DNA of 64,000 nucleotides, from assembly GCF_050320075.1 (NCBI RefSeq), contig NZ_CP190018.1. One strand, written 5' to 3'. The notes beneath the pieces were generated by a model. That model had not been told where the DNA came from, searched no databases, and saw only the letters and a list, made by a program, of their open reading frames with translations. Origin of the DNA: Escherichia coli. Its GTDB lineage: Bacteria; Pseudomonadota; Gammaproteobacteria; Enterobacterales; Enterobacteriaceae. The translations under genes were made by a program, and so were the position numbers. Positions 19,988 to 38,989 of the stretch are shown piece after piece. Numbering within the stretch: position 1 is the first letter of the stretch; each line of letters opens with the position of its first letter.

Positions 19988-20005
19988 TGTGTCAGGACTG
20001 GCACA
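19988..20005 (+). promoter_or_regulatory. Candidate Ogr/Delta activator site (TGT-N12-ACA) of a P2/P4-type late promoter upstream of sid
   Basis: TGTgtcaggactggcACA centred about 80 bp upstream of the sid ATG. Confidence 0.5.
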
Positions 20006-20077: not shown

Positions 20078-20812
20078 ATGTCTGACAACACCATCCCTGA
20101 ATATCTGCAACCCGCACTGGCACAACTGGAAAAGGCCAGAGCCGCCCACCTTGAGAACGCCCGCCTGATGGATGAGACCGTCACGGCCATTGAACGGGCA
20201 GAGCAGGAAAAAAATGCGCTGGCGCAGGCCGACGGAAACGACGCTGACGACTGGCGCACGGCCTTTCGTGCAGCCGGTGGTGTCCTGAGCGATGAGCTGA
20301 AACAGCGCCACATTGAGCGCGTGGCACGCCGGGAGCTGGTACAGGAATATGACAATCTGGCCGTGGTGCTGAATTTTGAACGTGAACGCCTGAAAGGGGC
20401 GTGTGACAGCACGGCCACCGCCTACCGGAAGGCACATCATCACCTTCTGAGTCTGTATGCAGAGAATGAGCTGGAACACGCCCTGAATGAAACCTGTGAG
20501 GCGCTTGTCCGGGCAATGCATCTGAGTATCCTGGTACAGGAAAATCCGCTCGCCAACACCACCGGCCATCAGGGCTACGTCGCACCCGATAAAGCTGTCA
20601 TGCAGCAGGTGAAATCATCGCTGGAACAGAAAATTAAACAGATGCAAATCAGCCTCAGCGGTGAGCCGGTTCTCCGGCTGGCAGGACTGTCAGCGGCAAC
20701 ACTCCCGCACATGGATTATGAGGTGGCAGGCACACCGGCACAGCGCAAGGTGTGGCAGGACAAAATAGACCAGCAGGGAGCAGAGCTTAAGGCCAGAGGG
20801 CTGCTGTCATGA
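20078..20812 (+). CDS. sid: Sid-like capsid size determination (external scaffold) protein, 244 aa
   Basis: Starts MSDNTIPEYLQPALAQLEKARAAHLENARLMDE; 244 aa from the ATG at 20078 (RBS GAGGAG) equals P4 Sid as recalled; followed by delta and psu. The ORF-track start at 20060 is six codons too far upstream. Confidence 0.75.
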   Translation: MSDNTIPEYLQPALAQLEKARAAHLENARLMDETVTAIERAEQEKNALAQADGNDADDWRTAFRAAGGVLSDELKQRHIERVARRELVQEYDNLAVVLNFERERLKGACDSTATAYRKAHHHLLSLYAENELEHALNETCEALVRAMHLSILVQENPLANTTGHQGYVAPDKAVMQQVKSSLEQKIKQMQISLSGEPVLRLAGLSAATLPHMDYEVAGTPAQRKVWQDKIDQQGAELKARGLLS

Positions 20813-21054
20813 TGCGCTGCCCTTTCTGTCGTCATTCAGCGCATACCCGCACCAGCCGGTATGTGAGTGACAATGTCAAAGAAAGTTATCTGCAGTGCCA
20901 GAATATTTACTGTTCGGCGACATTTAAAACGCATGAGTCAATTTGTGCCGTGATTCGTTCTCCGGTCACGGAGGAAAAACCAGCACCGGCAAGCACAGCA
21001 CCGGCTGTTGTCCGAAAAGTTAAAGGCTGTTACAGCTCACCATTCAACCATTAA
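20809..21054 (+). CDS. Ogr/Delta-family zinc-finger late-gene transcription activator (81 aa, single domain)
   Basis: C-X2-C-X22-C-X4-C pattern (CPFC ... CQNIYC); start overlaps the sid stop (ATGA). Confidence 0.75.
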   Translation: MMRCPFCRHSAHTRTSRYVSDNVKESYLQCQNIYCSATFKTHESICAVIRSPVTEEKPAPASTAPAVVRKVKGCYSSPFNH

Positions 21055-21068
21055 TCAGGAGACGGGGT

Positions 21069-21641
21069 GTGACCACAATGTCATTACAGCAGGCTTTTGA
21101 GGTCTGCCAGAATAACAAAGCGGCATGGCTGCAACGCAAAAATGAGCTGGCTGCAGCCGAACAGGAATATCTGCGGCTTCTGTCCGGGGAAGGCAGAAAC
21201 GTCAGCCGCCTGGACGAATTACGCAATATTATCGAAGTCAGAAAATGGCAGGTGAATCAGGCCGCCGGTCGTTATATTCGTTCGCATGAAGCCGTTCAGC
21301 ACATCAGCATCCGCGAGCGGCTGAATGATTTTATGCAGCAGCACGGCACAGCACTGGCGGCCGCACTGGCACCGGAGCTGATGGGCTACAGTGAGCTGAC
21401 GGCCATTGCCCGAAACTGTGCCATACAGCGTGCCACAGATGCCCTGCGTGAAGCCCTTCTGTCCTGGCTTGCGAAGGGGGAAAAAATTAATTATTCCGCG
21501 CAGGATAGCGACATTTTAACGACCATCGGATTCAGGCCTGACGCGGCTTCGGTGGATGACAACCGTGAAAAATTCACCCCTGCGCAGAACATGATTTTTT
21601 CGCGTAAAAGTGCGCAACTGGCATCACGTCAGTCTGTGTAA
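21069..21641 (+). CDS. psu: Psu-like protein (polarity suppression / capsid decoration), 190 aa
   Basis: 190 aa as for P4 Psu; sequence (QQAFEVCQNNKAAWLQRKNELAAAEQEYLRLLSGEGRNVSRLDELRN) matches my recollection of Psu; last gene of the sid-delta-psu block. Confidence 0.75.
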   Translation: MTTMSLQQAFEVCQNNKAAWLQRKNELAAAEQEYLRLLSGEGRNVSRLDELRNIIEVRKWQVNQAAGRYIRSHEAVQHISIRERLNDFMQQHGTALAAALAPELMGYSELTAIARNCAIQRATDALREALLSWLAKGEKINYSAQDSDILTTIGFRPDAASVDDNREKFTPAQNMIFSRKSAQLASRQSV

Positions 21642-21805
21642 AATTCCCCGAAAATCCGCCCGTTTTTACTGAAAAAAGCCATGCATCGATAAGGTGCATG
21701 GCTTTGCATGCGTTTTCCTGCCTCATTTTCTGCAGACCGCGCCATTCCCGGCGCGGTCTGAGCGTGTCAGTGCAACTGCATTAAAACCGCCCCGCAAAGC
21801 GGGCG

Positions 21806-21824
21806 GGCGAGGCGGGGAAAGCAC
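21806..21824. other. P2/P4-type cos site (19-nt cohesive-end sequence GGCGAGGCGGGGAAAGCAC)
   Basis: Exact match to the P2-type cohesive end as recalled, immediately downstream of psu and preceded by GC-rich hairpins. Confidence 0.7.
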
Positions 21825-21842
21825 TGCGCGCTAGGAACGAAA

Positions 21843-24563
21843 TTATTTGTAATTATTTATTATCTCTTCAATCTTCAAAAGTGCTTGTGAGAAATCACTT
21901 AATTTCCGTGTGTTGACTATATAGCGTAATAAACCTCTGATTGTCTCTGCTTCTGAGTTAAATCTAAATCCTTTATAGTTTTCAACAAGCTTGGATACTT
22001 TCTCAGGAAGATTGTCATAGCTGTCTGAAATCTCTGATGCTAATAAAAATAATTCAAATTTAATCTTTCTTTCTTCATTGAAATCAGTTGTGGAAATATT
22101 TTTGATAAATGATTTTATTTTATCTCTATTCTTTTCTGTTGATATTCTGTACAGATCATATAGTATTGTTTCAGCAGCTCTTGCTTTATCTGTATTCGGA
22201 TAAGAACTAATTTCATGAAGTAATTTATCGACCTTGCTGTCGTCTTCTATATTAACGCCCAGTTTTTTGGCTACTGAAAAAATATTAGCAAGGCCTCTAT
22301 TGACTATAGCTATCACCTCATACCTACCAAGGTTTCTACTTATTAACTTATCGAGAATCGTGTATATTAAAGTTTTTATGCTGTCAGTGGATAAAGTTTC
22401 ACTGTGGGTGTTGTACCTTATAACGACATATTCGGAAATAGCATCATAGAATGCTAGGTTGTGGTATGAGGACTTTAAAGTGTCGTTTAATGTTTTTAAT
22501 ACTACCGCGTCTTGCTCTGTGGTTATTTTCATTAAAGATAGTAGTTTTAATGCGTTGATTAACTTTCCTTCTATAGGGTTGAGAAACGTAGCGAACTTGC
22601 TATATGACTTCGCTAGGTTTTGCAGTACAGTATTTATTAACCAATCTAATTCTTTGGGTTGAACAGACAGCGATAATAGTTTTTTATCTTCTTTCCTTAG
22701 TATAAGAGATAGGGTTTTATTATCAATGTATTTAATGCATGAATATAATTCTAATCTTGTTAGAGAAATCTCGTCTTTATCAGAATCCTTGATTATTTTT
22801 ATTTCAATGAATTTGCGAATCACATCCTTGAATTCTTTATAAACATCAATTAAACATCCATTTTTTACAACAAAAATTATAAGGTTTTCGAAAAGAAATT
22901 CCGTTTTATGAAGATCCCCGTCAACTAATAACTTTGTATTTCTTTTTCTTATATCGCTATACTTTGTTAATAATGAGCTAACGGTGTAGTGAAGATTTAA
23001 TAAATAATTAAAGGTTACTAAATCATAGATTACGGAGACGGTTTTTTTTATATTTCTCGGTAAGTTATCATATAATTCATGAATTTTATTCTCCTCAAGA
23101 GTTGAGTATCTTTCTCTATTAATTGAAAAATCATACTTCAATCTATTCAAAATAATATTTTGATTGAAAAGCGATATGAGAATATTTGCATAGTCCTTTT
23201 GTCTGATCTCTTCTGATAATTCCTCCTCTATAATACTGTAAGCCTCATCGTATTTATTTAACTGGAAGCAATTATATTTCTTAGTCTTGTCTATACTATT
23301 TGCAACCTTATGGGGGCGTGTATAGGTAACTATTTCGTTATAGTTGAAATTAATTTCCTTATCTATTTTAATTAATGAATCATTTGGTAGCACTTCAGTA
23401 ATCAGTAGCACTTCATCATGTTTATCGTTTAAAACAATACCATATATACTTGCTTTTTTTAATATAAAAAATAATTTTTGGAGATGCGGCTTATAGTCTT
23501 TAACTTTTTTATCATTACTGAGTATACTCAAAAACTTCTTATAAAATCCTCTTAGCTCTATATTATTATCATTAGAGGTTACTTCGGTGTCATAAAATTG
23601 CAATAAAGCTTTTGGTCCATTGTCATCAATATACATTAAACCGCAATTAGTGAAACATCTGGTAACTTGTTCAGCAAGTATTGCATTTAACGATTGAAGA
23701 GATCTCACTCTTGAATAAATAGCATTAATTATTTCGATATCATCTAAGTCTGCACATAGTTCTAGGCTATTTAGGCTATGCAGGAAAGTATATAACTTGT
23801 TTGAATATGAATTGTTATTGAAAGGTTTGATTGTTTCATCGGTTAAAATAATAGTGGTTATACCATGACTTTCAAGATATTTTCTTTGAGCAGGAATATC
23901 TTCGAATACTACTAAATACATAGGGGGTCTAACAGATGAATGATTCTGAGTCCATTTAATTATTTGCTTTAGATCTATATCATTATATGAATACCCCAAA
24001 AATAGCACAGTATGGGTGGAAATAACACTTTTAACATAATTTTCAATTAAGGGAAAATTGAAGCTATAATTTAAGTAATCATCTTCTTTAAAGACGATGT
24101 TGTGATTTTTAAAATCACCATGCATTTTTATCAATTTTTTGCCAAGGTAAGATTTCATCAAATCTTTGTCACTGCTTATTATATTATAAAAGTAAGATTT
24201 GGCATTTATAGCTGCTTCAAGCAAAGTGTCCCAATTCGTTGTGATAACAGAGTGAGGATTCAGTTTAAATATTAGATCGTGAATCTTTGAATGGGGAACA
24301 TTTTCAGGAAAGAAATCTTTGATTCTTTTGTAGTAAAGATGCTCACCAAATGTGAGGTAATAAAGCTGTGCTATTTTTAAATAATCTGATTCATCTTTGA
24401 TATTGAGATCTGAAATGAGAGTGTCAATTAAGTCCCCCCATGAAGGCATTTTGATAGTTTTTGTTTCAGAGGATTTTGAAACACCAGCCCCTACAAAAAT
24501 AGCTAAAGACTCCTCATCTTTTGCTCTTAAAATACTAGCTATATGTTTGTTTAGCAAATCCAT
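21843..24563 (-). CDS. Cargo gene in the satellite cos-int slot: 906-aa protein with N-terminal SIR2-like domain and long helical C-terminal region; candidate antiphage NAD+-depleting defence protein (DSR-like)
   Basis: N-terminal motifs FVGAGVS, VITTNWD, KMHGDF, LFLGYSYNDIDL resemble SIR2_2-type domains; the remaining ~650 aa are low-complexity helical repeats. Strongly AT-rich relative to the prophage backbone. Sits between cos and int. Confidence 0.55.
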   Translation of the reverse strand: MDLLNKHIASILRAKDEESLAIFVGAGVSKSSETKTIKMPSWGDLIDTLISDLNIKDESDYLKIAQLYYLTFGEHLYYKRIKDFFPENVPHSKIHDLIFKLNPHSVITTNWDTLLEAAINAKSYFYNIISSDKDLMKSYLGKKLIKMHGDFKNHNIVFKEDDYLNYSFNFPLIENYVKSVISTHTVLFLGYSYNDIDLKQIIKWTQNHSSVRPPMYLVVFEDIPAQRKYLESHGITTIILTDETIKPFNNNSYSNKLYTFLHSLNSLELCADLDDIEIINAIYSRVRSLQSLNAILAEQVTRCFTNCGLMYIDDNGPKALLQFYDTEVTSNDNNIELRGFYKKFLSILSNDKKVKDYKPHLQKLFFILKKASIYGIVLNDKHDEVLLITEVLPNDSLIKIDKEINFNYNEIVTYTRPHKVANSIDKTKKYNCFQLNKYDEAYSIIEEELSEEIRQKDYANILISLFNQNIILNRLKYDFSINRERYSTLEENKIHELYDNLPRNIKKTVSVIYDLVTFNYLLNLHYTVSSLLTKYSDIRKRNTKLLVDGDLHKTEFLFENLIIFVVKNGCLIDVYKEFKDVIRKFIEIKIIKDSDKDEISLTRLELYSCIKYIDNKTLSLILRKEDKKLLSLSVQPKELDWLINTVLQNLAKSYSKFATFLNPIEGKLINALKLLSLMKITTEQDAVVLKTLNDTLKSSYHNLAFYDAISEYVVIRYNTHSETLSTDSIKTLIYTILDKLISRNLGRYEVIAIVNRGLANIFSVAKKLGVNIEDDSKVDKLLHEISSYPNTDKARAAETILYDLYRISTEKNRDKIKSFIKNISTTDFNEERKIKFELFLLASEISDSYDNLPEKVSKLVENYKGFRFNSEAETIRGLLRYIVNTRKLSDFSQALLKIEEIINNYK

Positions 24564-24575
24564 TGTATATACCTC

Positions 24576-25739
24576 TCAATATAATTTATCTGAATACCAT
24601 TGCATCATTTTTTTTCTATGTTCAAGATATTGAGCATGATTGTAAGTCCCTCGGATTCTGTTTTTATCAACATGTGCCAATTGTATTTCAATCCATGCGC
24701 TATCAAACCCTTGTTCGTGCAATATTGTCGACATGGTATGCCGAAAACCGTGACCTGTAGCACGGCCTTTGTAGCCAATTAACTCAATCACTTGTGAAAC
24801 ACTTTCTTTTGAGATTGGCTTGCTGCGGTTGTTCCTGCCAATAAAGATGTAAGGGTAATGGCCGGTAATAGGTTTGAGCTGTTTGAAAAGGTCAACTACC
24901 TGAGTAGATAAAGGAACAATGTGAGGTCTACGCATTTTCATACGTTCCGCTGGTATCTCCCATATACCTTTTTCGAGGTCTACTTCTTCCCACGTAGCAA
25001 AGCGCATCTCCTGCGTTCTTACACCAGTCAGCATGACTATCTTCGTAGCATTTTTGGTGATGATGCTACCGGTATACGCTTCAAGATCTCGAATAAAATG
25101 AGGCAACTCTTCAGCGGATAAAAATGGATGGTGTTTTTGCTTGGGAACGGCCAGAGCGATAGCTAAATCAGGTGCAGGATTGTACTCAGCACGGCCAGTT
25201 ATGATTGCATAGCGATAAACCTCACCGCATCTTTGACGCACCTTGCGTGTTTTCTCTAGTGCTCCACGTTTTTCGATTCGTCGTAATACTTCAAGCAGTT
25301 CTAATGGTTTGATTTCACTGATAGGACGTTTACCAATGAACGGGAAGACATCTTGCTCGAATGTCTTAATGATTTCTTCTCGATAGGCCACAGTCCAGCG
25401 GTCAGCTTTGTTGGTATGCCATTCTCGACATATTGCTTCGAAAGAATTTTCTGTTGATAGCTTTTGGGCGAGTCTTAAAGCTTTGCGTTCCTCTACCGGG
25501 TCAATGCCATTAGCAACCTGCTTACGGGCGATATCACGCTTCTCACGTGCTTCTGCGAGGCTTACTAAATCGTAGCTGCCAAATGACATTAACCGCGCTT
25601 TCCCTGCAAACCGGAAACGGAAACGCCAGCCTTTCGAGCCATCGGGATTGATAAGCAATGACAGACCTTGTCCATCGTTCAATGTGTATGGCTTGTCTTG
25701 TGGTTTTGCACGTTTGATCTGTATATCGGTGAGAGCCAT
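24576..25739 (-). CDS. int: P4-family tyrosine integrase (387 aa)
   Basis: N-terminal MALTDIQIKRAKP...GKARLMSFGSYDLVSLAEAREKR and C-terminal catalytic region (HGFRHTMSTILHEQG ... RGTYNH); adjacent to the tRNA target. Confidence 0.9.
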   Translation of the reverse strand: MALTDIQIKRAKPQDKPYTLNDGQGLSLLINPDGSKGWRFRFRFAGKARLMSFGSYDLVSLAEAREKRDIARKQVANGIDPVEERKALRLAQKLSTENSFEAICREWHTNKADRWTVAYREEIIKTFEQDVFPFIGKRPISEIKPLELLEVLRRIEKRGALEKTRKVRQRCGEVYRYAIITGRAEYNPAPDLAIALAVPKQKHHPFLSAEELPHFIRDLEAYTGSIITKNATKIVMLTGVRTQEMRFATWEEVDLEKGIWEIPAERMKMRRPHIVPLSTQVVDLFKQLKPITGHYPYIFIGRNNRSKPISKESVSQVIELIGYKGRATGHGFRHTMSTILHEQGFDSAWIEIQLAHVDKNRIRGTYNHAQYLEHRKKMMQWYSDKLY

Positions 25740-25901
25740 GTGTATAACTGAAAACTACTTATAAAAAATCTATACACATTACTATACATATTTTTCGCGG
25801 ATTTAGGGAGACGATCTCGGACTGTTACGGATAAGATGATTATTCATCATATTGAATATAAAGGGTTTTATGGATCATCTCGGAACTGGCTGGATGAAGT
25901 T

Positions 25902-25996
25902 TGGCGGAAGATCACAGGAGTCGAACCTGCCCGGGACCGCTGGCGGCCCCAACTGGATTTGAAGTCCAGCCGCCTCACCGGAGACGACGATCTTCC
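25902..25996 (-). tRNA. selC: tRNA-Sec (selenocysteine tRNA), intact, 95 nt
   Basis: Reverse complement matches my recollection of E. coli selC from GGAAGATCGTCGTCTCC... to ...GATCTTCCGCCA. Confidence 0.95.
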
Positions 25997-30293: not shown

Positions 30294-31847
30294 ATGCAAA
30301 TGATTACCTCGCGACAAAACAGATTATTACGATTCCTTTTACCACGAAGGGAATATACGACTATTGTTACGATTGCCGGCTATTTAAATGTTTCGGAAAA
30401 AACCATTCAACGTGATTTACGTTTACTTGAGCAATGGCTGGAACAATGGCGAATAACCGTTGAGAAGCGTGCTGGCGCGGGTGTGATGTTAGACTCGAAG
30501 AATATTACTGATTTGCTGCATCTTGATCATTTGTTGGGAGCAGAATGTGAAGAGATTGATGGTGTAATGAATAATGCCAGGCGCGTTAAAATAGCGTCGC
30601 AGTTATTAAGTGAAACACCGAATGAAACGTCGATCAGTAAATTGTCAGAGCGCTATTTTATCAGTGGAGCCTCTATTGTTAATGACCTGAGAGTGATTGA
30701 GTCCTGGCTTGCGCCGTTGGGGTTATCATTGATCCGCAGCCCAAGTGGTACGCATATTGAAGGTAGTGAAGGGCAAGTCCGACAGGCAATGGCATTACTG
30801 ATTAACGGCATTATTAACCATAATGAGCCGCAAGGTGTCGTGTATTCACGTCTGGATCCCGGAAGTTATAAAGCATTAGTCCATTATTTTGGAGAAGAAG
30901 AGGTGTTATTTGTCCAGTCATTGTTACTGGATATGGAAAATGAATTAAGTTGGTCTTTGGGAGAGCCTTATTACGTTAACATTTTTACTCACATCCTTAT
31001 TATGATGTATCGCAACACGCACGGGAATGCGTTATCCAGAGAAGAAGATCAAACCAGGCAATATGATGAAAATATCTTTAATGTTGCCAGTCAGATGATT
31101 CATAAGATAGAACAACGAATTGCACATACATTGCCCGATGATGAAGTCTGGTTTATTTATCAATATATCATTTCATCAGGTGTGGCGATTGATGGACAAA
31201 AAGATGTGAGCATTATTTCACATATGCAGGCCAGCAATGAAGCGCGTCTGATTACCTGGCGTTTAATTACGGTATTCAGTGACATCGTGGACTGCGATTT
31301 TAGTGAAGACAGCGCATTATATGATGGCTTGTTGGTTCATATTAAGCCGCTGATTAACCGACTAAATTATCGCATTCATATCCGTAATCCATTGCTGGAA
31401 GATATTAAAGCAGAATTAGCGGATGTCTGGCGGTTGACGCAATATGTGGTGAATCAGGTATTTAAAACCTGGGGTGAGAATGCAGTGAGCGAGGATGAAG
31501 TAGGTTACCTGACCGTTCATTTTCAGGCTGCGATGGAGCGGCAAATTGCCCGTAAACGTGTATTACTGGTCTGTTCAACCGGAATCGGAACTTCGCATCT
31601 ACTGAAAAGCCGTATTCTGCGAGCATTTCCTGAATGGACGATTGTTGATGTTATTTCAGCAGCGAATTTATCACAGGTTTTGCCTGACAATATCGAACTG
31701 ATTATTTCGACCATTAATTTGCCTACAGTCACTATGCCGGTCGCTTATGTTACCGCTTTTTTTAATGATGCCGATATTAAGCGGGTCACTGAAATGGTGA
31801 TTACGGAAAAATTACATCATGCGACATCTCGGGTCGTTGAAATTTAA
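30294..31847 (+). CDS. PRD-domain transcriptional regulator (BglG/LicR/MtlR-like: N-terminal HTH, PRD region, C-terminal EIIB-like domain)
   Basis: 517 aa; HTH (TIVTIAGYLNVSEKTIQRDLRLLEQ) and C-terminal KRVLLVCSTGIGTSHLL EIIB-like motif. Confidence 0.75.
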   Translation: MQMITSRQNRLLRFLLPRREYTTIVTIAGYLNVSEKTIQRDLRLLEQWLEQWRITVEKRAGAGVMLDSKNITDLLHLDHLLGAECEEIDGVMNNARRVKIASQLLSETPNETSISKLSERYFISGASIVNDLRVIESWLAPLGLSLIRSPSGTHIEGSEGQVRQAMALLINGIINHNEPQGVVYSRLDPGSYKALVHYFGEEEVLFVQSLLLDMENELSWSLGEPYYVNIFTHILIMMYRNTHGNALSREEDQTRQYDENIFNVASQMIHKIEQRIAHTLPDDEVWFIYQYIISSGVAIDGQKDVSIISHMQASNEARLITWRLITVFSDIVDCDFSEDSALYDGLLVHIKPLINRLNYRIHIRNPLLEDIKAELADVWRLTQYVVNQVFKTWGENAVSEDEVGYLTVHFQAAMERQIARKRVLLVCSTGIGTSHLLKSRILRAFPEWTIVDVISAANLSQVLPDNIELIISTINLPTVTMPVAYVTAFFNDADIKRVTEMVITEKLHHATSRVVEI

Positions 31848-31873
31848 TGTCAGAATTTTATGAGGTATGACGA

Positions 31874-32344
31874 ATGGACATAACAAAAATCCTGAATACG
31901 AATCGCGTTATTTTAGATATGCAAGCGACGAATAAAGCGGAGGCGATTGAAGAATTAACTAATCTTCTCAAAAAAGATGGTGCGATCGATTGTCGGGAAA
32001 CCTTTATTAAAGATGTCTGGCAGCGCGAAGCGGAAGGCTCGACTGGTTTTGAAAATCATATTGCGATCCCGCATGGTAAATCTTCTGCGGTAATTAATAC
32101 CACGCTGGCTATCGGGCGTACCCGGCAGGATATTCCCTGGGAAACACTGGATGGCAGTAGCGTACGCTGTATTATTTTATTTGCGGTACGTCTTGAAGAT
32201 CAAAATACCACTCATATCCGTTTACTTTCCCAGGTCGCGGGCGCGCTTGCAGATGATGACATCATAGCGCAATTGCTGGTTGAGACGAGCCCGCAAAAAA
32301 TCATTGATCTCTTTAGTCAGTATGCACAATCCGATGTCTACTAA
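31874..32344 (+). CDS. PTS EIIA component, fructose/mannitol (EIIA-2) family
   Basis: 156 aa; conserved HIAIPHGK histidine motif. Confidence 0.8.
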   Translation: MDITKILNTNRVILDMQATNKAEAIEELTNLLKKDGAIDCRETFIKDVWQREAEGSTGFENHIAIPHGKSSAVINTTLAIGRTRQDIPWETLDGSSVRCIILFAVRLEDQNTTHIRLLSQVAGALADDDIIAQLLVETSPQKIIDLFSQYAQSDVY

Positions 32345-32361
32345 ATAACAGGGAGTATATC

Positions 32362-32676
32362 ATGAATATTGTCTGTGTTGCCGCCTGCACGGCGGGTATT
32401 GCTCACACCTATATTGCTCGTGAAAAGTTAATTAAAGGGGCAAAAGCACTGGGCCACACCATTAAAGTTGAAACCCAGGGAACCATTGGTACAGAAAACG
32501 AATTACAGGCGGCAGAGATCTCTGCTGCTGACGTCGTGATTCTTGCTGTGGATGTGAAAATAAAAGGAGAAGAACGTTTTACCAATAAACGCATTGTGCG
32601 AGTAAAGACAGAGATCGTCATTAAATCGCCCGTTCAATTTCTTGAAAAGGTCGAAAAATCACTGGGAAATAAATGA
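32362..32676 (+). CDS. PTS EIIB component, fructose type
   Basis: 104 aa; active-site cysteine context VAACTAGIAHTYIA. Confidence 0.8.
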   Translation: MNIVCVAACTAGIAHTYIAREKLIKGAKALGHTIKVETQGTIGTENELQAAEISAADVVILAVDVKIKGEERFTNKRIVRVKTEIVIKSPVQFLEKVEKSLGNK

Positions 32677-32700
32677 TCCTTATACTGGAGGGATCTTAAT

Positions 32701-33792
32701 ATGAAAGAAAATAAAATTCCGGTTTCACAGGAAATTAAAAAACATTTATTAACCGGCATCTCGTGGATGATACCCCTTATTGTGGCCGCCGGGATATGTA
32801 TTGCGTTGGGGCAAGTTCTTGGCGGTACAGATGTTGGTGAAAAAACAGGAACAATCCCGTGGATGCTTAATCAGATTGGCGGCTGGGGAATGGGGCTGAT
32901 TGTGCCGCTGATTAGCGCGGCAATTGCCTATTCTATTGCCGATCGTCCCGGATTTGCCCCGGGCCTGATTGTCGGCTTTCTCTGTGGGCAAATCCATACC
33001 GGATTTATTGGCGGTATGTTGGGTGGTTTCCTGGTGGGCTACACCATTTTGCTACTTAAACGCTATATTCGCCTGCCGCAGTCGATGCAAGGACTCATGC
33101 CAATCATGGTGTTACCGGTATTGAGCACCATTATTGGTGGTCTGTTAATGATGACGCTGATTGGTAAACCCATCGCCTGGTTACAAGAAGCACTGATTCA
33201 TTTGCTCGAGTCGATGCAGGGCGGATCGCGCTTCCTGATGGGGGCCATACTTGGCGCGATGGCAACCTTCGATTTCGGTGGTCCGGTCAACAAAACCATG
33301 TCGCTGTTTTCCGATGGCTTGCTGGTCAGTGGCGTCTACGGACCAGAAGCCGTGAAATTTGTCGGCTCAATCATCCCTCCGTTTGGCATCACACTTTCGT
33401 TCTTACTGACACGCCATAAATACACCCGTGCGGAGCGCGAGGCGCTGAAAGCCGCGTTTCCGATGGGGATCTGCATGATCACTGAAGGAGTCATTCCGAT
33501 CGCCGCGCGTGACCTGTTGCGAGTAGTGGGATCTTGTGTGGTGGCATCGGCGGTCGCGGGCGGCTTAATCATGGTGTGGGGCGTGGAGAGTCCGGTTCCA
33601 CATGGCGGCATGTTTGTTGTGCCTCTGTTCACCCATCCTCTGCTGTTTTGCCTGGCGCTGGGTATAGGCACGGTGATTTGTGGCGTGATGCTTTCACTCT
33701 GGAAGAAACCGGTAACGGAACGCGACGAAGAGTTTGACGAACTGAGCGATCAAAAGCTGAAAGATGAAGAGATCACTTTCACCCTCGAATAA
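32701..33792 (+). CDS. PTS EIIC permease, fructose-like family
   Basis: 363 aa polytopic membrane protein directly after EIIA/EIIB. Confidence 0.8.
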   Translation: MKENKIPVSQEIKKHLLTGISWMIPLIVAAGICIALGQVLGGTDVGEKTGTIPWMLNQIGGWGMGLIVPLISAAIAYSIADRPGFAPGLIVGFLCGQIHTGFIGGMLGGFLVGYTILLLKRYIRLPQSMQGLMPIMVLPVLSTIIGGLLMMTLIGKPIAWLQEALIHLLESMQGGSRFLMGAILGAMATFDFGGPVNKTMSLFSDGLLVSGVYGPEAVKFVGSIIPPFGITLSFLLTRHKYTRAEREALKAAFPMGICMITEGVIPIAARDLLRVVGSCVVASAVAGGLIMVWGVESPVPHGGMFVVPLFTHPLLFCLALGIGTVICGVMLSLWKKPVTERDEEFDELSDQKLKDEEITFTLE

Positions 33793-33803
33793 CCGGAGGC
33801 CCT

Positions 33804-34655
33804 ATGTTTGCCGATATGAAAAGTATGGTGATGAAAGCCTGGCATGAACATTACGCCTTGCTGGCGATCAACTGTATGAATCTGGAAAGTGCTCACGCAG
33901 CTATCCGCGTGGCGGAGAAGAATCGCGCTCCGATCATTCTCAATCTCTATCAGGGGCATCTGGCGCATTTTCCTGCACCCGTCGCGGCGGCAGTGGTTAA
34001 AACGCTCGCGGAATCTGCCTCAGTACCGGTCGCTCTGGCGCTTGATCATGGCAAAAATCCGGACTGTATTCGTCAGGCGTTTCGTGCTGGTTTCAGCGGA
34101 TTAATGATTGATGCTTCTGCTTTTCCCCTGGAGGAAAACGTGCGCCAGACCAGGGCGGTGGTGGAACTCGCCGCCAGCGCGCAGCTCTGCGTGGAAGGCG
34201 AACTGGGCCATCTGGCAGATGCGCCGCGTTACGACCAGGCCGCCAATGCAGACCTGATGACGCAACCCACTGATGTGGAACCGTTTATCGCGCAGACAGG
34301 CATTGATCTACTGGCCGTCTCGGTAGGCACGGCGCACGGCATGTACGCGCCTGGTGTTGTACCTGCTATTGATTTTCAGCGTCTGGCGGAGATTTTCCAC
34401 TGCTCGAGCGTGCCTCTGGCATTACATGGCGGTAGCGGTACGCCGTTCGATCAGCTCCAGCTCTGTACGACGCTGGGGGTAGCAAAAATCAACGTGGGGG
34501 CGGCCATTTTTGAACGGGGGAAATCCGCGCTCCTGCATACCCTCTGTCACGATATATCCATTGAACTGGTGGACGCGCTGAAAGCTATGGAACTGGCCTT
34601 CGAAGAAGCGATTACACCGTATTTACAGGCGAGCGGCTCTATAGGCAAAGCCTGA
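33804..34655 (+). CDS. Class II (metal-dependent) ketose-bisphosphate aldolase family protein, paralogue 1
   Basis: 283 aa; LALDHGK and LHGGSG blocks typical of FbaA/GatY/KbaY-type aldolases. Confidence 0.75.
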   Translation: MFADMKSMVMKAWHEHYALLAINCMNLESAHAAIRVAEKNRAPIILNLYQGHLAHFPAPVAAAVVKTLAESASVPVALALDHGKNPDCIRQAFRAGFSGLMIDASAFPLEENVRQTRAVVELAASAQLCVEGELGHLADAPRYDQAANADLMTQPTDVEPFIAQTGIDLLAVSVGTAHGMYAPGVVPAIDFQRLAEIFHCSSVPLALHGGSGTPFDQLQLCTTLGVAKINVGAAIFERGKSALLHTLCHDISIELVDALKAMELAFEEAITPYLQASGSIGKA

Positions 34656-34735
34656 TTCATTTTCTGTCATGGCCTTTATGCCAGTGCAATAACGCACCGG
34701 CAGGGCGGACTACACGCTGAAACTGGAGATTTAAC

Positions 34736-35596
34736 ATGTTAGTTTCGATGAAAGAATTACTGCAACCTACCCGCCAGCACGGCTTTGCCATTGGCGCATT
34801 TAATGTGGCGGATAACTGTTTCCTTCGCGCAGTCGTGGATGAAGCAGAAGCGACAAATACTCCGACGATTATTGCCATCCATCCCAGCGAACATGATTTT
34901 GTGGGCGATGCCTTTTTCGCTCACGTTCGCGAAATTACCCAGCGTAGTCCGGTCCCGTTTGTACTGCACCTCGATCATGGTGCCTCTGTAGAGCATGTTT
35001 TGCGTGCGATTCGCTGCGGATTTACCTCAGTAATGATCGACGGTTCGCTGCTGCCGTATGAAGAAAACGTGGCGCTGACCGCAGAAGTGGTTCGCCTCGC
35101 TCACGCGGTTGGAGTGTCGGTTGAGGGTGAACTGGGAACCATCGGACAAACAGGAACGTCGGTAGAAGGTGGTGTTTCACAAGTGACCTACACAGATCCG
35201 GCGCAGGCCGCCGATTTTATTGCTCGTACAGGTGCCGACACACTGGCTGTGGCGATTGGTACAGCGCATGGCATCTATCCAAAAGGGATGCAGCCGAAGC
35301 TGCAAATGGACATTTTGCGCGACATTGCCGGGCGCATTGATATTCCATTGGTGTTGCACGGTGGTTCGGCAAATCCGGACGCGGAGATTGCTGAATCAGT
35401 TACGCTCGGCGTTGGCAAAATCAATATCTCCAGCGATATGAAATACGCCTATTTCCAGAAAGTGCGTGAAATTCTCGCCAAAGAGAGCTGGTGGGATCCG
35501 AACGTCATCTATCCGGATGCGATTAACGCGGCGCGGGAAGTCATTCGCCACAAAATGAAACTGTTCGGTTCGCTCGGTAAAGCATCACTGTACTAA
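34736..35596 (+). CDS. Class II (metal-dependent) ketose-bisphosphate aldolase family protein, paralogue 2
   Basis: 286 aa; LHLDHGAS, GELG, AIGTAHG, LVLHGGSA blocks. Confidence 0.8.
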   Translation: MLVSMKELLQPTRQHGFAIGAFNVADNCFLRAVVDEAEATNTPTIIAIHPSEHDFVGDAFFAHVREITQRSPVPFVLHLDHGASVEHVLRAIRCGFTSVMIDGSLLPYEENVALTAEVVRLAHAVGVSVEGELGTIGQTGTSVEGGVSQVTYTDPAQAADFIARTGADTLAVAIGTAHGIYPKGMQPKLQMDILRDIAGRIDIPLVLHGGSANPDAEIAESVTLGVGKINISSDMKYAYFQKVREILAKESWWDPNVIYPDAINAAREVIRHKMKLFGSLGKASLY

Positions 35597-35643
35597 GCCA
35601 GAAGGGCGGGATGACCCGCCTTTTACGCAACAAGGAACGAGAT

Positions 35644-36576
35644 ATGCACTATCTGGGGTTGGATATTGGTGGGACCAAAATCGCCGCCGTCGTCATGGAT
35701 GCGCATGGCTGGGAGATTCGCCGTTACCGCTGCCCGACGCAAAAGTCGACATATCAACAATTTGTCTCATGCGTTGTGGCGCTTATCGAGCAGATTAGGC
35801 GGGACGTTCAACGACCGATGCTGACAGGGGTCGCCTTACCCGGCAGTATCTCGCCACTCACTGGCCTGATTAAAAACGCGAATATTCAGGTGATTAACGG
35901 TCATGCGTTACAGGCTGATTTGCAGCAATTGCTTGGGCAACCGGTGGTGATAGCCAATGATGGTAACTGTTTCGCGCTATCAGAAGCTTGCGACGGTGCC
36001 GGGCAAGATTATGACGTAGTATTTGGTATTACGCTTGGTACAGGCTGCGGCGGTGGCATTGCCATCAAGCAACGACCGTTTATAGGGGCCTGGGGAAATG
36101 CTGCCGAATGCGGTCATATCACGTTGCCAGGCTATATGGAGCAGGAAGATGGTCCATCAGTCAGTTGCTATTGCGGCAAACACAACTGCGTGGAGTCGTT
36201 TGTTTCCGGCAGCGGTTTTAGTGAACGCTATCAACAGATGACTGGTAACTTGCTCACTCCTGCGGCGATTGTCACCCTGGCACAACGTGGTGATGCTTGT
36301 GCCATGCAGCAGGTGGCACGTTTTCGCCAACAGCTTGCCCGCACGCTGGCAACCATCGTTAACGTTGTTGACCCTGGCGTGATTGTCATCGGCGGCGGGC
36401 TTTCGAATGTGGAACTGCTTATCACCGATCTGAACGCAGAAGTCGCTCCACTGGTTTTCACCGATCAATTCACCACTCCCATTGTAAAAGCACAGCACGG
36501 CGACAGTAGCGGAATGCGTGGCGCTGCCTGGCTTGCTATGCGCAACGGAGAAGCCAATGAAACGTTCACAAATTAA
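35644..36576 (+). CDS. ROK-family sugar kinase
   Basis: LGLDIGGTKIA N-terminal ATP motif and ROK zinc motif CYCGKHNCVESFVSG. Start placed at MHYLGLDIGG; the ORF track starts 11 codons earlier at 35611. Confidence 0.75.
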   Translation: MHYLGLDIGGTKIAAVVMDAHGWEIRRYRCPTQKSTYQQFVSCVVALIEQIRRDVQRPMLTGVALPGSISPLTGLIKNANIQVINGHALQADLQQLLGQPVVIANDGNCFALSEACDGAGQDYDVVFGITLGTGCGGGIAIKQRPFIGAWGNAAECGHITLPGYMEQEDGPSVSCYCGKHNCVESFVSGSGFSERYQQMTGNLLTPAAIVTLAQRGDACAMQQVARFRQQLARTLATIVNVVDPGVIVIGGGLSNVELLITDLNAEVAPLVFTDQFTTPIVKAQHGDSSGMRGAAWLAMRNGEANETFTN

Positions 36577-37237
36577 TTATGTTATTGATAAAGCACATGC
36601 CATTGCGCAGACCTTCCGCGTTTGTTTGCCAGAGTTCGCCTATTTTACGGTGGATGACTGGCTGCAGCGGGAACGGGATAACTGGCAAGAAGTGGTCGAC
36701 TTACAGCTCGGTTGGGATATCACCGATTTTGGTCGTGGTGATTTCAACCAAACGGGACTAACACTGCTAACGATGCGCAACGGCGCGCTGGGGGCGGCGG
36801 CATATCCAAAACCGTATGCTGAGAAAATGTTGCAGATCCAACAAGATCAGCAGACTCCCTGGCATTTTCACACCCACAAAATGGAAGATATCCTCAATCG
36901 GGGCGGTGGAGACTTATGCATGCAGTTGGCCTGGGCCAACGAAGCCAATCTCTGTGATGATCAGCGGGTTATTACCGTGAGTGTTGATGGTCAGCGGCGT
37001 GCCGTGAAACCTGGTGAAACGCTGGTGCTAAAGCCGGGGCAGGGCATTTGCCTGCCGCCGCGTCTGTATCATCGCTTCTGGGCGGAAAAAGCGTTTGTTC
37101 TCGGCTGGGAAATTTCGATGGTAAATGATGACCAACATGATAACCATTTTCTTGAGCCGGGAGGACGTTTTCCGGCGATAGAAGAAGATGAACCGGTGAA
37201 ATGGTTATTGTGTAGTGAGTATGCTGTTTTGCGGTAA
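36557..37237 (+). CDS. Cupin-type sugar isomerase-like protein (D-lyxose/mannose ketol-isomerase-like), tentative
   Basis: About 226 aa from MKRSQINYV; His-rich WHFHTHKMEDI metal-site-like motif. Start overlaps the ROK kinase 3' end by 20 nt. Family call is tentative. Confidence 0.45.
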   Translation: MKRSQINYVIDKAHAIAQTFRVCLPEFAYFTVDDWLQRERDNWQEVVDLQLGWDITDFGRGDFNQTGLTLLTMRNGALGAAAYPKPYAEKMLQIQQDQQTPWHFHTHKMEDILNRGGGDLCMQLAWANEANLCDDQRVITVSVDGQRRAVKPGETLVLKPGQGICLPPRLYHRFWAEKAFVLGWEISMVNDDQHDNHFLEPGGRFPAIEEDEPVKWLLCSEYAVLR

Positions 37238-37279
37238 TAGCGGGGACGCTAACGTTGATATCCGTTAGCGCCCGCGTAT

Positions 37280-38989
37280 TTACTGCACCGGCTCCGTCGA
37301 TGTAACTTCGCCACTGGAAACGACGCCTGCATTCATGGTTTGAGTCACTTGCTGCTTTGTGGCGTTCACGGCATGCAATTGCCCGCTAACCGTAGGTTTC
37401 AGCGGGATATTGGCCTGAATATCGCCGCTGGCGGTAAGCTGAATATTGCCGTCGCCAGTCAACGGTAATTCAGGCCATCCCCACTGTTGCAAAATATTCA
37501 CCGGCACACCGCGTCCATTCAGGCTGATATGGGTCTGACGTTGTGGCGTTTGTGAAACACTGGCGGTGGCTTCCAGAATGCCTTTTTCAGTAAATGCACT
37601 CAGTTCGCTGATATTCACCGTGCTGCTGTTGGCGGTCAGCGCCAGCGATGGGCGACGAACATCAACACGATTAAATGTCGCGGCGGCGGCATTCAGATTC
37701 GCCGAACCACTCCAGACGCCCCATTTATGATCGGTAACCAGCGTCAGGTTGGCACCGTAACCATCGAGCGCGGTGAGCTGCCACGGGAAGTCAGGGTCGA
37801 TATCAATGATCAGATTGCGGCTGGCGCTAAATCTCTTCAGTTGCAGGCTGTTTAACCAACCGGGTGTTGTTTCCATCCACAACTGTTGCCAGTTTTTTGG
37901 CAAGGTATATTCCAGTCCGGCAATTGCCGCATCATCGAGGATCAGCGTTTTCCCGTCGCGTTGCCAGTTTCCTGACGTTCTGACCATACCCCCTTCCCAG
38001 CGGCTGGTGAACTGGCGCAGCGCTACGCCCTGCGGGGAAAATTCCGCGTTTATAATCGGGTCAAATAAATGCAGCGAACCATAAATGAACTCGCTGGCGT
38101 TCATCGACAGTTTGCCTTCCTGTGTCTGCCAGCCATCTTTACTGAAGGTCATGTTGCGCAAGCTGAGATCGAGGTCGGTCACCGCCCAGTCCGGACCTTG
38201 CAAACGAGCATCGATCACTTCCAGGCGACCAATCTGCAACGACGGGACAGAGCGTAATGGCGCAAAGAAGTCGGTTAGCGATTTTTCGCTTTGTAGACGG
38301 ATATCCGCCATGCGCAGATTTTCCACTTGCCAGCTGCCGTCGGCGTTACGCTGCGCGTTTCCGGTTAATGTCCCGCGGGCGATGTCGGCACCCAGGTTAG
38401 TCAGCGTAACGCGATCGTTATCAATACTGCCTTCAATCAGTACATTGGTGGCAGGAACATCATTGAGCGAAAGCGATCCGGCACTAAACTGAATCTGCGC
38501 CTTCGTACCCAGCACTTTACCGGCTTCTGGTGACCACGGAACCACGCCGCCATTTACCCGCTGCGCGCTCAGTTTCCATTCGCTATTCGGGCTATTAAAC
38601 GCCATATCACGCAGTTGCAGACGATCGGCTTTGAACGGTAGCGGCGCGGTCTGGTCGGTGAGATTCAGCGTCCCGTTTTCCAGCAGGATGGTATCGACAT
38701 GGCGTGGTTCGGTCAGTTGCCGACTGCTTAGCGCAATGTCGACACTTTTTGCCACCAGGGTCGCGGGCTGGCCATCACGGCCGAACGTGACGTTCTCCAG
38801 CACGATATGAGATGGCGCGGAAAAACGGTGATCCATCGCCCCGAAGGCCAGATGATAGTCGCTATTCTCGGAAACCCATGCGCTGATATGTTCTGCTCCC
38901 CAGCGGGTTTGCAGAAGAAAATAGAGGCCAGCGATCACCACTAACAGAGCGATGAAAATGTAGAGAAGCAGCTTCCCAATAAATTTCAT
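37280..38989 (-). CDS. yicH: AsmA-family protein YicH
   Basis: 569 aa from MKFIGKLLLYIFIALLVVIAGLYFL (N-terminal membrane anchor); conserved position next to xanP. Confidence 0.85.
   Translation of the reverse strand: MKFIGKLLLYIFIALLVVIAGLYFLLQTRWGAEHISAWVSENSDYHLAFGAMDHRFSAPSHIVLENVTFGRDGQPATLVAKSVDIALSSRQLTEPRHVDTILLENGTLNLTDQTAPLPFKADRLQLRDMAFNSPNSEWKLSAQRVNGGVVPWSPEAGKVLGTKAQIQFSAGSLSLNDVPATNVLIEGSIDNDRVTLTNLGADIARGTLTGNAQRNADGSWQVENLRMADIRLQSEKSLTDFFAPLRSVPSLQIGRLEVIDARLQGPDWAVTDLDLSLRNMTFSKDGWQTQEGKLSMNASEFIYGSLHLFDPIINAEFSPQGVALRQFTSRWEGGMVRTSGNWQRDGKTLILDDAAIAGLEYTLPKNWQQLWMETTPGWLNSLQLKRFSASRNLIIDIDPDFPWQLTALDGYGANLTLVTDHKWGVWSGSANLNAAAATFNRVDVRRPSLALTANSSTVNISELSAFTEKGILEATASVSQTPQRQTHISLNGRGVPVNILQQWGWPELPLTGDGNIQLTASGDIQANIPLKPTVSGQLHAVNATKQQVTQTMNAGVVSSGEVTSTEPVQ

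Follow-up and report, generated by a model that had tools for sequence, protein, structure and literature searches.

Introduction

Satellite phage P4 and phage P2 have in common a 55-bp core at their cohesive-end (cos) sites, which PMC5694545 and PMC2231350 credit to Ziermann and Calendar (1990). P4 circles are cut at this 55-bp cos and cosmids of 5–10 kb have been packaged (PMC2231350), a cos site together with the sid operon was enough for a P2 lysogen to package ~11.6 kb of heterologous DNA in small capsids (PMC9942202), and one study found that the efficiency of cosmid transduction was higher with longer cos flanks (PMC9594776). The capacity of the small capsid is ~12 kb (PMC9122126). P4-like elements also carry a hotspot for defence genes that directly adjoins cos (Rousset et al. 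2022, PMC9122126), and the swapping of cargo at this hotspot is rapid (PMC9122126; bioRxiv 10.64898/2026.02.27.708500). A further member of the group, the retronphage phiR73, is a P4-like satellite whose integration site is the selenocysteine tRNA gene (Sun, Inouye and Inouye 1991, cited in PMC6174562).

The present study examined a 64,000-nt stretch of Escherichia coli DNA, hereafter the window, in which an initial annotation had placed a P2-type cos site with GC-rich hairpins downstream of psu. Judged from its sequence, this region is very probably the cos packaging site of a complete 11,259-bp P4-like satellite prophage that sits at the 3′ end of selC and would be mobilisable by a P2-type helper.

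Methods

To survey cos sites in other hosts, one genome per species was scanned for exact matches to the 19-nt cohesive-end sequence of the window (the 19-mer). The cos alignment comprised 29 sites, drawn from the 22 survey loci with enough flank, P2, P4, three E. coli variants, and the window. P4 proteins were searched against the window with tblastn.

Results

A P4-like satellite at selC

Two exact copies of a 23-bp att core bound the element, the right-hand copy lying at a tRNA gene, and the 11,259 bp between them amount to 97% of the size of P4 (11,624 bp) and fall within the ~10–12 kb range of the small capsid. The chromosomal neighbours are setC on the left and yicJ and yicI on the right. 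The borders and the P4-like backbone comprise the following features, given by position in the window:

14641–14663, no strand: attL core, 23-bp exact repeat TTTGGCGGAAGATCACAGGAGTC, in direct repeat with 25900–25922 at a spacing of 11,259 bp
25900–25922, no strand: attR core, exact repeat of TTTGGCGGAAGATCACAGGAGTC, overlapping the 3′ end of tRNA-Sec
25902–25996, minus strand: tRNA-Sec (selC), the integration target (ARAGORN; Rfam RF01852, 83.8 bits)
14792–15094, plus strand: crr, two ~120-bp direct repeats, the replication region required in cis (aligns to P4 crr 4291–4590)
15140–17473, minus strand: alpha primase-helicase, 777 aa (99.4% identical to P4 alpha over 777/777 aa; NCBIfam P4-family primase)
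17488–17808, minus strand: ORF106 (DUF5375), 100% identical to P4 ORF106
17944–18399, minus strand: ORF151, 98.7% identical to P4 ORF151
18392–18679, minus strand: epsilon, helper derepression protein, 95 aa, 98.9% identical to P4 epsilon
18924–19011, minus strand: CI immunity RNA (Rfam C4 antisense RNA family, RF01695, 76.2 bits, E 8e-14)
19110–19200, minus strand: target sequences of the immunity RNA (isrK, RF01394, 71.2 bits; c4-a1b1, RF03163, 50.8 bits)
19259–19525, minus strand: vis / ORF88, excisionase-type regulator, 98.9% identical to P4 ORF88
19988–20005, plus strand: TGT-N12-ACA dyad upstream of sid, read from the sequence, in a block 96.9% identical to P4
20078–20812, plus strand: sid, capsid size determination scaffold, 244 aa (98.0% identical to P4 Sid over 244/244 aa)
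20809–21054, plus strand: delta, a short (81 aa) Ogr/Delta zinc-finger activator (NCBIfam PRK09678, E 1e-22; 51% identical to the N-terminal half of P4 delta)
21069–21641, plus strand: psu, polarity suppression and capsid decoration (95.7% identical to P4 Psu over 188 aa)

The DNA was 97–97.5% identical to that of P4 between crr and the beginning of delta and again from psu to cos. The tblastn search recovered the P4 genes at full length and 85–100% identity, none being truncated or frameshifted relative to P4, and all seven core genes of P4 satellites (int, psu, delta, sid, alpA/vis, epsilon, and alpha) were found full length, delta in its short form. NCBIfam matched only alpha, delta, and int among these core genes and gave no match for sid or psu, which had been called intact in the initial annotation and which are so, at 98% and 96% identity to P4 over their full lengths. 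The C4, isrK, and c4-a1b1 matches all exceeded the Rfam gathering scores, and we take the TGT-N12-ACA dyad to be the pattern of the Ogr/Delta activator site of P2 and P4 late promoters.

A 394-aa open reading frame at 12824–14008 was considered as the integrase of the element and rejected, being the chromosomal sugar efflux gene setC. Between setC and attL lies a fragment of a rhuM pseudogene (~14420–14585, as annotated by RefSeq in strains whose flanks match), which is probably a relic of an earlier selC island. Elsewhere in the window, a low-GC block occupies ~4000–10200 (GC 0.37 over 4001–8000), and in strain Ec-U3, whose flanks are 100% identical, ~8600–10160 is annotated with type III secretion genes (a YopB/SseC-family translocon and a SycD/LcrH chaperone). 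On the other side of the element, an insertion carrying a BglG-family antiterminator and PTS genes (30294–37280) separates yicI from yicH; annotation shows its beginning in SMS-3-5 and Ec-U3, it is absent in 200112, Tig228, MB56, and 042, and the yicI–yicH neighbourhood is thus variable among strains.

Integrase and SIR2 cargo

The modules unlike those of P4 are the short delta, the integrase, and a SIR2 gene in place of gop/beta/cII, the latter two being as follows:

21843–24563, minus strand: cargo gene for a 906-aa SIR2 protein with a DSR2-like N-terminal NADase domain (Pfam SIR2_2, E 2e-23; PADLOC ThsA SIR2, E 4e-27)
24576–25739, minus strand: tyrosine integrase of the selC-specific type, 387 aa, adjoining tRNA-Sec (NCBIfam PRK09692, E 2e-86; 38% identical to P4 Int)

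Residues 12–295 of the SIR2 protein matched DSR2 (PDB 8k98, E 9e-38), and the C-terminal ~600 aa beyond residue 295 returned no sequence match in PDB, Pfam, PADLOC, or NCBIfam. The GC content of the gene is 29.9%, compared with 55% in the backbone, and the exact protein is recorded on 646 contigs.

The cos site

Two nested features define the site itself:

21806–21824, plus strand: 19-nt cohesive-end sequence, exact and unique, with nicks expected at staggered positions, on the top strand 5′ of 21806 and on the bottom strand after 21824
21777–21831, plus strand: 55-bp cos core common to P2 and P4 (54/55 positions against P4, 53/55 against P2)

The cohesive-end sequence, GGCGAGGCGGGGAAAGCAC, forms the first 19 nt of both the P4 and the P2 record, is exact on the plus strand of the window, and had no second match anywhere in the 64 kb when up to three mismatches were allowed; as a measure of chance expectation, it matched in 0 of 100 shuffles. 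The initial annotation had reported an exact P2-type end at these positions and had named alignment with the P2 and P4 cos regions as a check. The end is confirmed with zero mismatches, and that alignment yielded the core identities listed above, every position of the core carrying the base of P4 or of P2, which agree with each other at 52/55. To the left of the 19-mer, 165 of 166 bp were identical to the right end of P4. The psu gene ends 165 bp upstream of the 19-mer, and the SIR2 stop codon lies 18 bp beyond the cohesive end.

Matches to 2,250 E. coli genomes ended at 21830–21834, and conservation was lost 7–10 bp beyond the cohesive end in all comparisons. The conserved block runs from ~21682, where the first of a series of TGCAT motifs lies, to 21831, the end of a TGCGCGC (7 bases) that follows the 19-mer; the span first assigned to the site, 21690–21824, was rightly placed and slightly too narrow.

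An AT-rich run resembling TATTTATTT was seen 15–25 nt after the cohesive end at many P4-like loci with different cargo (21841–21868 in the window; loci L009–L030). The run is out of register between elements (+17 in the window and +25 in P4), in the window it falls inside the last SIR2 codons, in AT-rich coding sequence, and AT-rich cargo alone may be its source.

Conservation of cos across genera

The survey yielded 25 loci with the 19-mer, one of them a chance match and 24 of them true cos sites, from Escherichia albertii, another Escherichia, Citrobacter, Kosakonia, Raoultella, Phytobacter, Dickeya, Enterobacter, and some MAGs. Four MAGs labelled Clostridiales, Collinsella, Lachnospiraceae, and Bacillota (L007, L015, L023, and L025) had perfect enterobacterial P2/P4 cos regions, and L007 also had a P4-like psu 96% identical to that of the window; mis-binning of E. 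coli phage or satellite contigs is the likeliest explanation for these four.

The P2-like and P4-like sites aligned over 181 columns with zero gaps, and the window matched all invariant and nearly invariant columns, including the left arm GCATTAAAACC...AAGCGGGC at fixed spacing. Within the TGCAT motif at 21705, GCAT was invariant in 29/29 sites and TGCAT at 21695 was nearly so, while the copy at 21682 was kept in most of the aligned sequences (<90%). The other invariant or nearly invariant features were TGCAnCTGCAT at 21771–21781, AAACC, AAGCGGGC, the 19-mer, and the TGCGCGC after it, which was present in 27/29 sites, the window among them, the exceptions being the P4 reference and the element of E. 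coli 042. The distal motifs form one feature:

21682–21709, plus strand: distal TGCAT cluster (starts at 21682, 21695, and 21705), candidate terminase recognition elements

Four TGCAT motifs in 100 bp form the densest such cluster of the 64-kb window (Poisson P ~3e-6 per 100 bp), and the offsets from the nick are −124, −111, −101, −35 (as TGCAA), and −29. Conservation of cos is thus one-sided, extending over ~125 bp on the psu side and over 7 bp (TGCGCGC) on the cargo side, and because the information in the site is asymmetric, unrelated cargo can abut it.

Exchange of modules and cos as a possible breakpoint

Comparison with related elements shows recombination among satellite modules. In strain Tig228 (L033, 13075–13255 against 21656–21836 of the window), identity was 93% in the left cos flank, 95% from ori to sid, and 100% in SIR2 and int; the last difference falls 14 bp short of the 19-mer, and the two sequences are fully identical from there through SIR2 and int. 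Strain MB56 carries the same cargo with a long, P4-type delta, and at selC E. coli 042 joins the window's type of backbone to a PARIS-type cargo (AAA ATPase and DUF4435) that begins directly after cos.

The cos core may accordingly act, in addition to packaging, chiefly as an anchor or breakpoint at which cargo cassettes are swapped between satellites. The switch to complete identity in Tig228, the different cargo flush against cos on a shared type of backbone in 042, and the rapid swapping described for the hotspot in the studies cited above are all consistent with such a role, although the comparison covered a single clear breakpoint, that on the cos side. We hold this view tentatively, giving it real weight without expecting it to prove correct.

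Hairpins around cos

The initial annotation stressed GC-rich inverted repeats ahead of the cohesive end. Three stems can be drawn in or beside the conserved block:

21733–21760, plus strand: distal hairpin, GC-rich and perfect, 11-bp stem and 6-nt loop (arms 21733–21743 and 21750–21760), typical of P4-like elements
21787–21806, minus strand: proximal, terminator-like hairpin followed by TTTTAAT, 37 nt downstream of the SIR2 stop, the only such site in 21500–22000, with a stability that does not exceed that of shuffles
21675–21705, plus strand: hairpin downstream of psu with arms of 11 bp (13 bp in the RNA fold) and then TTTGCATGCGTTTT (−22 kcal/mol, z −3.3)

The two annotated repeats fared differently. 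GACCGCGCC (21735–21743) and GGCGCGGTC (21750–21758) are part of the distal 11-bp perfect inverted repeat, which as RNA folds at −24.4 kcal/mol (z = −4.5 against shuffles); position 21735 is G in the window and A in P4, the single difference in the 166 bp left of cos, and through it the stem reaches 11 perfect pairs. The proximal repeat, CCGCCCCGC (21787–21795) and GCGGGCGG (21799–21806), is present and imperfect, with 9 nt against 8 nt and one bulged C. A gap-free repeat finder did not report it, and its segment had no folding advantage over composition-matched shuffles (z = −0.2 on the plus strand and +0.1 on the minus strand).

The proposal that the stems are conserved structures was rejected, the distal one being strong and conserved only in part. 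In the 29-site alignment, 0 of the 8 proximal pairs were altered on both sides, departures from the stem appearing as unpaired cells, and the distal hairpin was paired in 63.6% of cells, its right arm GGCGCGG being conserved in sequence while the left arm decays. The three stems together were paired in 71% of cells as against 33–40% in slid controls, a comparison that is inflated because the structure was derived from the window itself. What is conserved across the 29 sites, and what characterizes cos, is sequence at fixed spacing and not the hairpins emphasized at first.

Alternatively, the hairpins may chiefly terminate or insulate transcription between the psu operon and the cargo gene, which converge, and not act as packaging signals. 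The proximal stem follows the SIR2 stop at 37 nt, with its T-rich tail on the minus strand and no other terminator-like site in 21500–22000, and the distal hairpin is very stable and yet absent from P2 and from most P2-like cos sites, which means that the helper terminase cannot require it. Against this, the stability of the proximal segment does not exceed that of shuffles, its pairs lack compensatory changes, and it sits inside the 55-bp core common to P2 and P4 whatever the neighbouring genes, while the distal hairpin is followed by a U-run on neither strand; on balance we think this function somewhat unlikely for the GC-rich pair. The hairpin at 21675–21705, which has a T-rich tail and overlaps the distal TGCAT motifs, is probably the terminator of the sid–delta–psu operon.

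Distribution among hosts

The element was covered to at least 80% in 31 of 5,426 complete E. coli genomes, 30 of these 31 having 97–100% coverage at 98.2–99.9% identity, and the carrier strains came from humans, poultry, dogs, a pangolin, a fox, and water. Relative to strains 200112 and SMS-3-5, the flanks were 97.7–98.4% and the left intergenic region 93–96% identical, and the segment from ORF106 to int was 99.9–100% identical. Some E. coli copies are insertion-sequence variants (H87 and H93); the copy in the window contains no insertion sequence. Two Salmonella enterica contigs (L036 and L037; 7825–10425) carried selC, an int 99.8% identical, and a visible part of SIR2 99.4% identical, amid flanks 79–81% identical; both contigs end inside SIR2, so that cos lies outside the view. 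A near-identical element amid divergent E. coli and Salmonella flanks has therefore moved horizontally, and the same int and SIR2 in Salmonella indicate a recent transfer between genera.

That the element is instead a cryptic prophage, no longer mobilisable and with a cos left intact by recent acquisition and not by function, is highly improbable: many P4-like elements in genomes are thought defective, a P2-like helper is absent from the 64-kb window (in which the 19-mer occurs once only), and the exact cos–SIR2 junction had 0 matches in the IMG/VR viral contigs, but the genes show neither truncation nor frameshift relative to P4, both att cores are exact, near-identical copies in divergent E. 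coli and Salmonella require recent transfer, and the window copy is free of the insertion sequences that other copies have taken up.

Discussion

Packaging of the element, SIR2 cargo included, into P2-helper capsids is a prediction that is supported by the locus, because the requirements that can be checked at the level of sequence (cos core, genes, att, and size) are all present. By analogy with P4 and P2 (PMC9122126, PMC2231350, PMC9942202), a P2-type helper would supply the capsid, the tail, and the terminase. With such a helper present, Int and Vis would carry out excision at the 23-bp att core, alpha would replicate the circle from ori/crr, and Ogr or Delta would activate the sid promoter; Sid would then drive the helper capsid protein into small capsids, which Psu would stabilise. 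The helper terminase would recognise cos on the circle and nick it at the two staggered positions listed above (5′ of 21806 and after 21824). The product, a linear genome of 11.26 kb bearing 19-nt 5′ cohesive ends, would be packaged in a small capsid. The mature order would be cos–SIR2–int–att–crr–alpha...sid–delta–psu–cos, as in P4, with SIR2 replacing gop/beta/cII.

Two features count against this packaging scheme. The right flank beyond +7 is wholly unlike that of P4, and delta is 81 aa long, compared with 166 aa in P4. A short delta works in the retronphage phiR73, which has a delta of half length and carries its cargo between cos and int.

The one-sided conservation of the site prompts a more speculative proposal. 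The cos of the P2/P4 family would be strongly asymmetric, with the TGCAT array, held at invariant distances from the nick without indels across genera, as a candidate recognition site for the small terminase subunit, comparable to cosB of lambda; a mere 7 bp would be needed on the opposite side, and cos would also be a recombination breakpoint. Taken as a whole we consider this proposal unlikely, although were it true, the asymmetry and the breakpoint would explain why defence hotspots sit flush on one side of cos in satellites and helpers alike. The phasing of the TGCAT motifs, the one-sidedness of cos, and its possible role as a breakpoint offer only a mildly new angle, and older literature may already describe them.

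The wider picture is that of a SIR2 defence gene riding on a satellite that looks mobilisable and that has spread recently between E. coli lineages and into Salmonella, which is consistent with the published view of P4-like satellites as shuttles of anti-phage systems and introduces no new principle. Its practical value lies in annotation, namely the borders of the element, the extent of cos (21682–21831 and not the 19-mer alone), and the reading of the GC-rich hairpins as something other than a conserved signal.

Among the described systems, P4 (NC_001609 / X51522) resembles the window in the identical 19-nt end, the left flank, the core, the position of cos downstream of psu, and the predicted mature gene order. 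It differs in the base after the cohesive end, which is C in P4 and T in the window, P2, and nearly all other sites, and it is unrelated from 8 bp beyond the end, where the window has SIR2 and P4 has gop/beta/cII. P2 (NC_001895) likewise has the identical 19-nt end, a closely matching core, and TGCAT motifs at equal distances from the nick, but it has no equivalent of the GC-rich hairpin at 21733–21760 and its flanking genes are old and Q. The selC element of E. coli 042 agrees with the window in its integration site, its type of backbone (~97% identity), and its short delta, and differs in its PARIS-type cargo and in a cos core with two substitutions after the 19-mer (CGCCCGC).

A search of a phage collection with the int/att region, made for phiR73, gave no relevant match. 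By description, phiR73 is the closest named relative in integration site and type of delta; its cargo is a retron where the window has SIR2.

The arrangement at the hotspot described by Rousset et al. (2022) recurs here, the cargo of the window likewise lying between cos and int. The SIR2 system which those authors cloned and tested (pFR88, strain M605) is a different protein from the one in the window. Their supplementary table also lists 'NC_010498 SIR2_2 WP_000365012' (PMC9122126). This entry denotes the SIR2 protein of the window, encoded at the matching locus of E. coli SMS-3-5, and the cos regions of that strain and of the window are 100% identical. Both the locus and the protein are thus already known from the literature, and the arrangement is the standard one of P4-like satellites.
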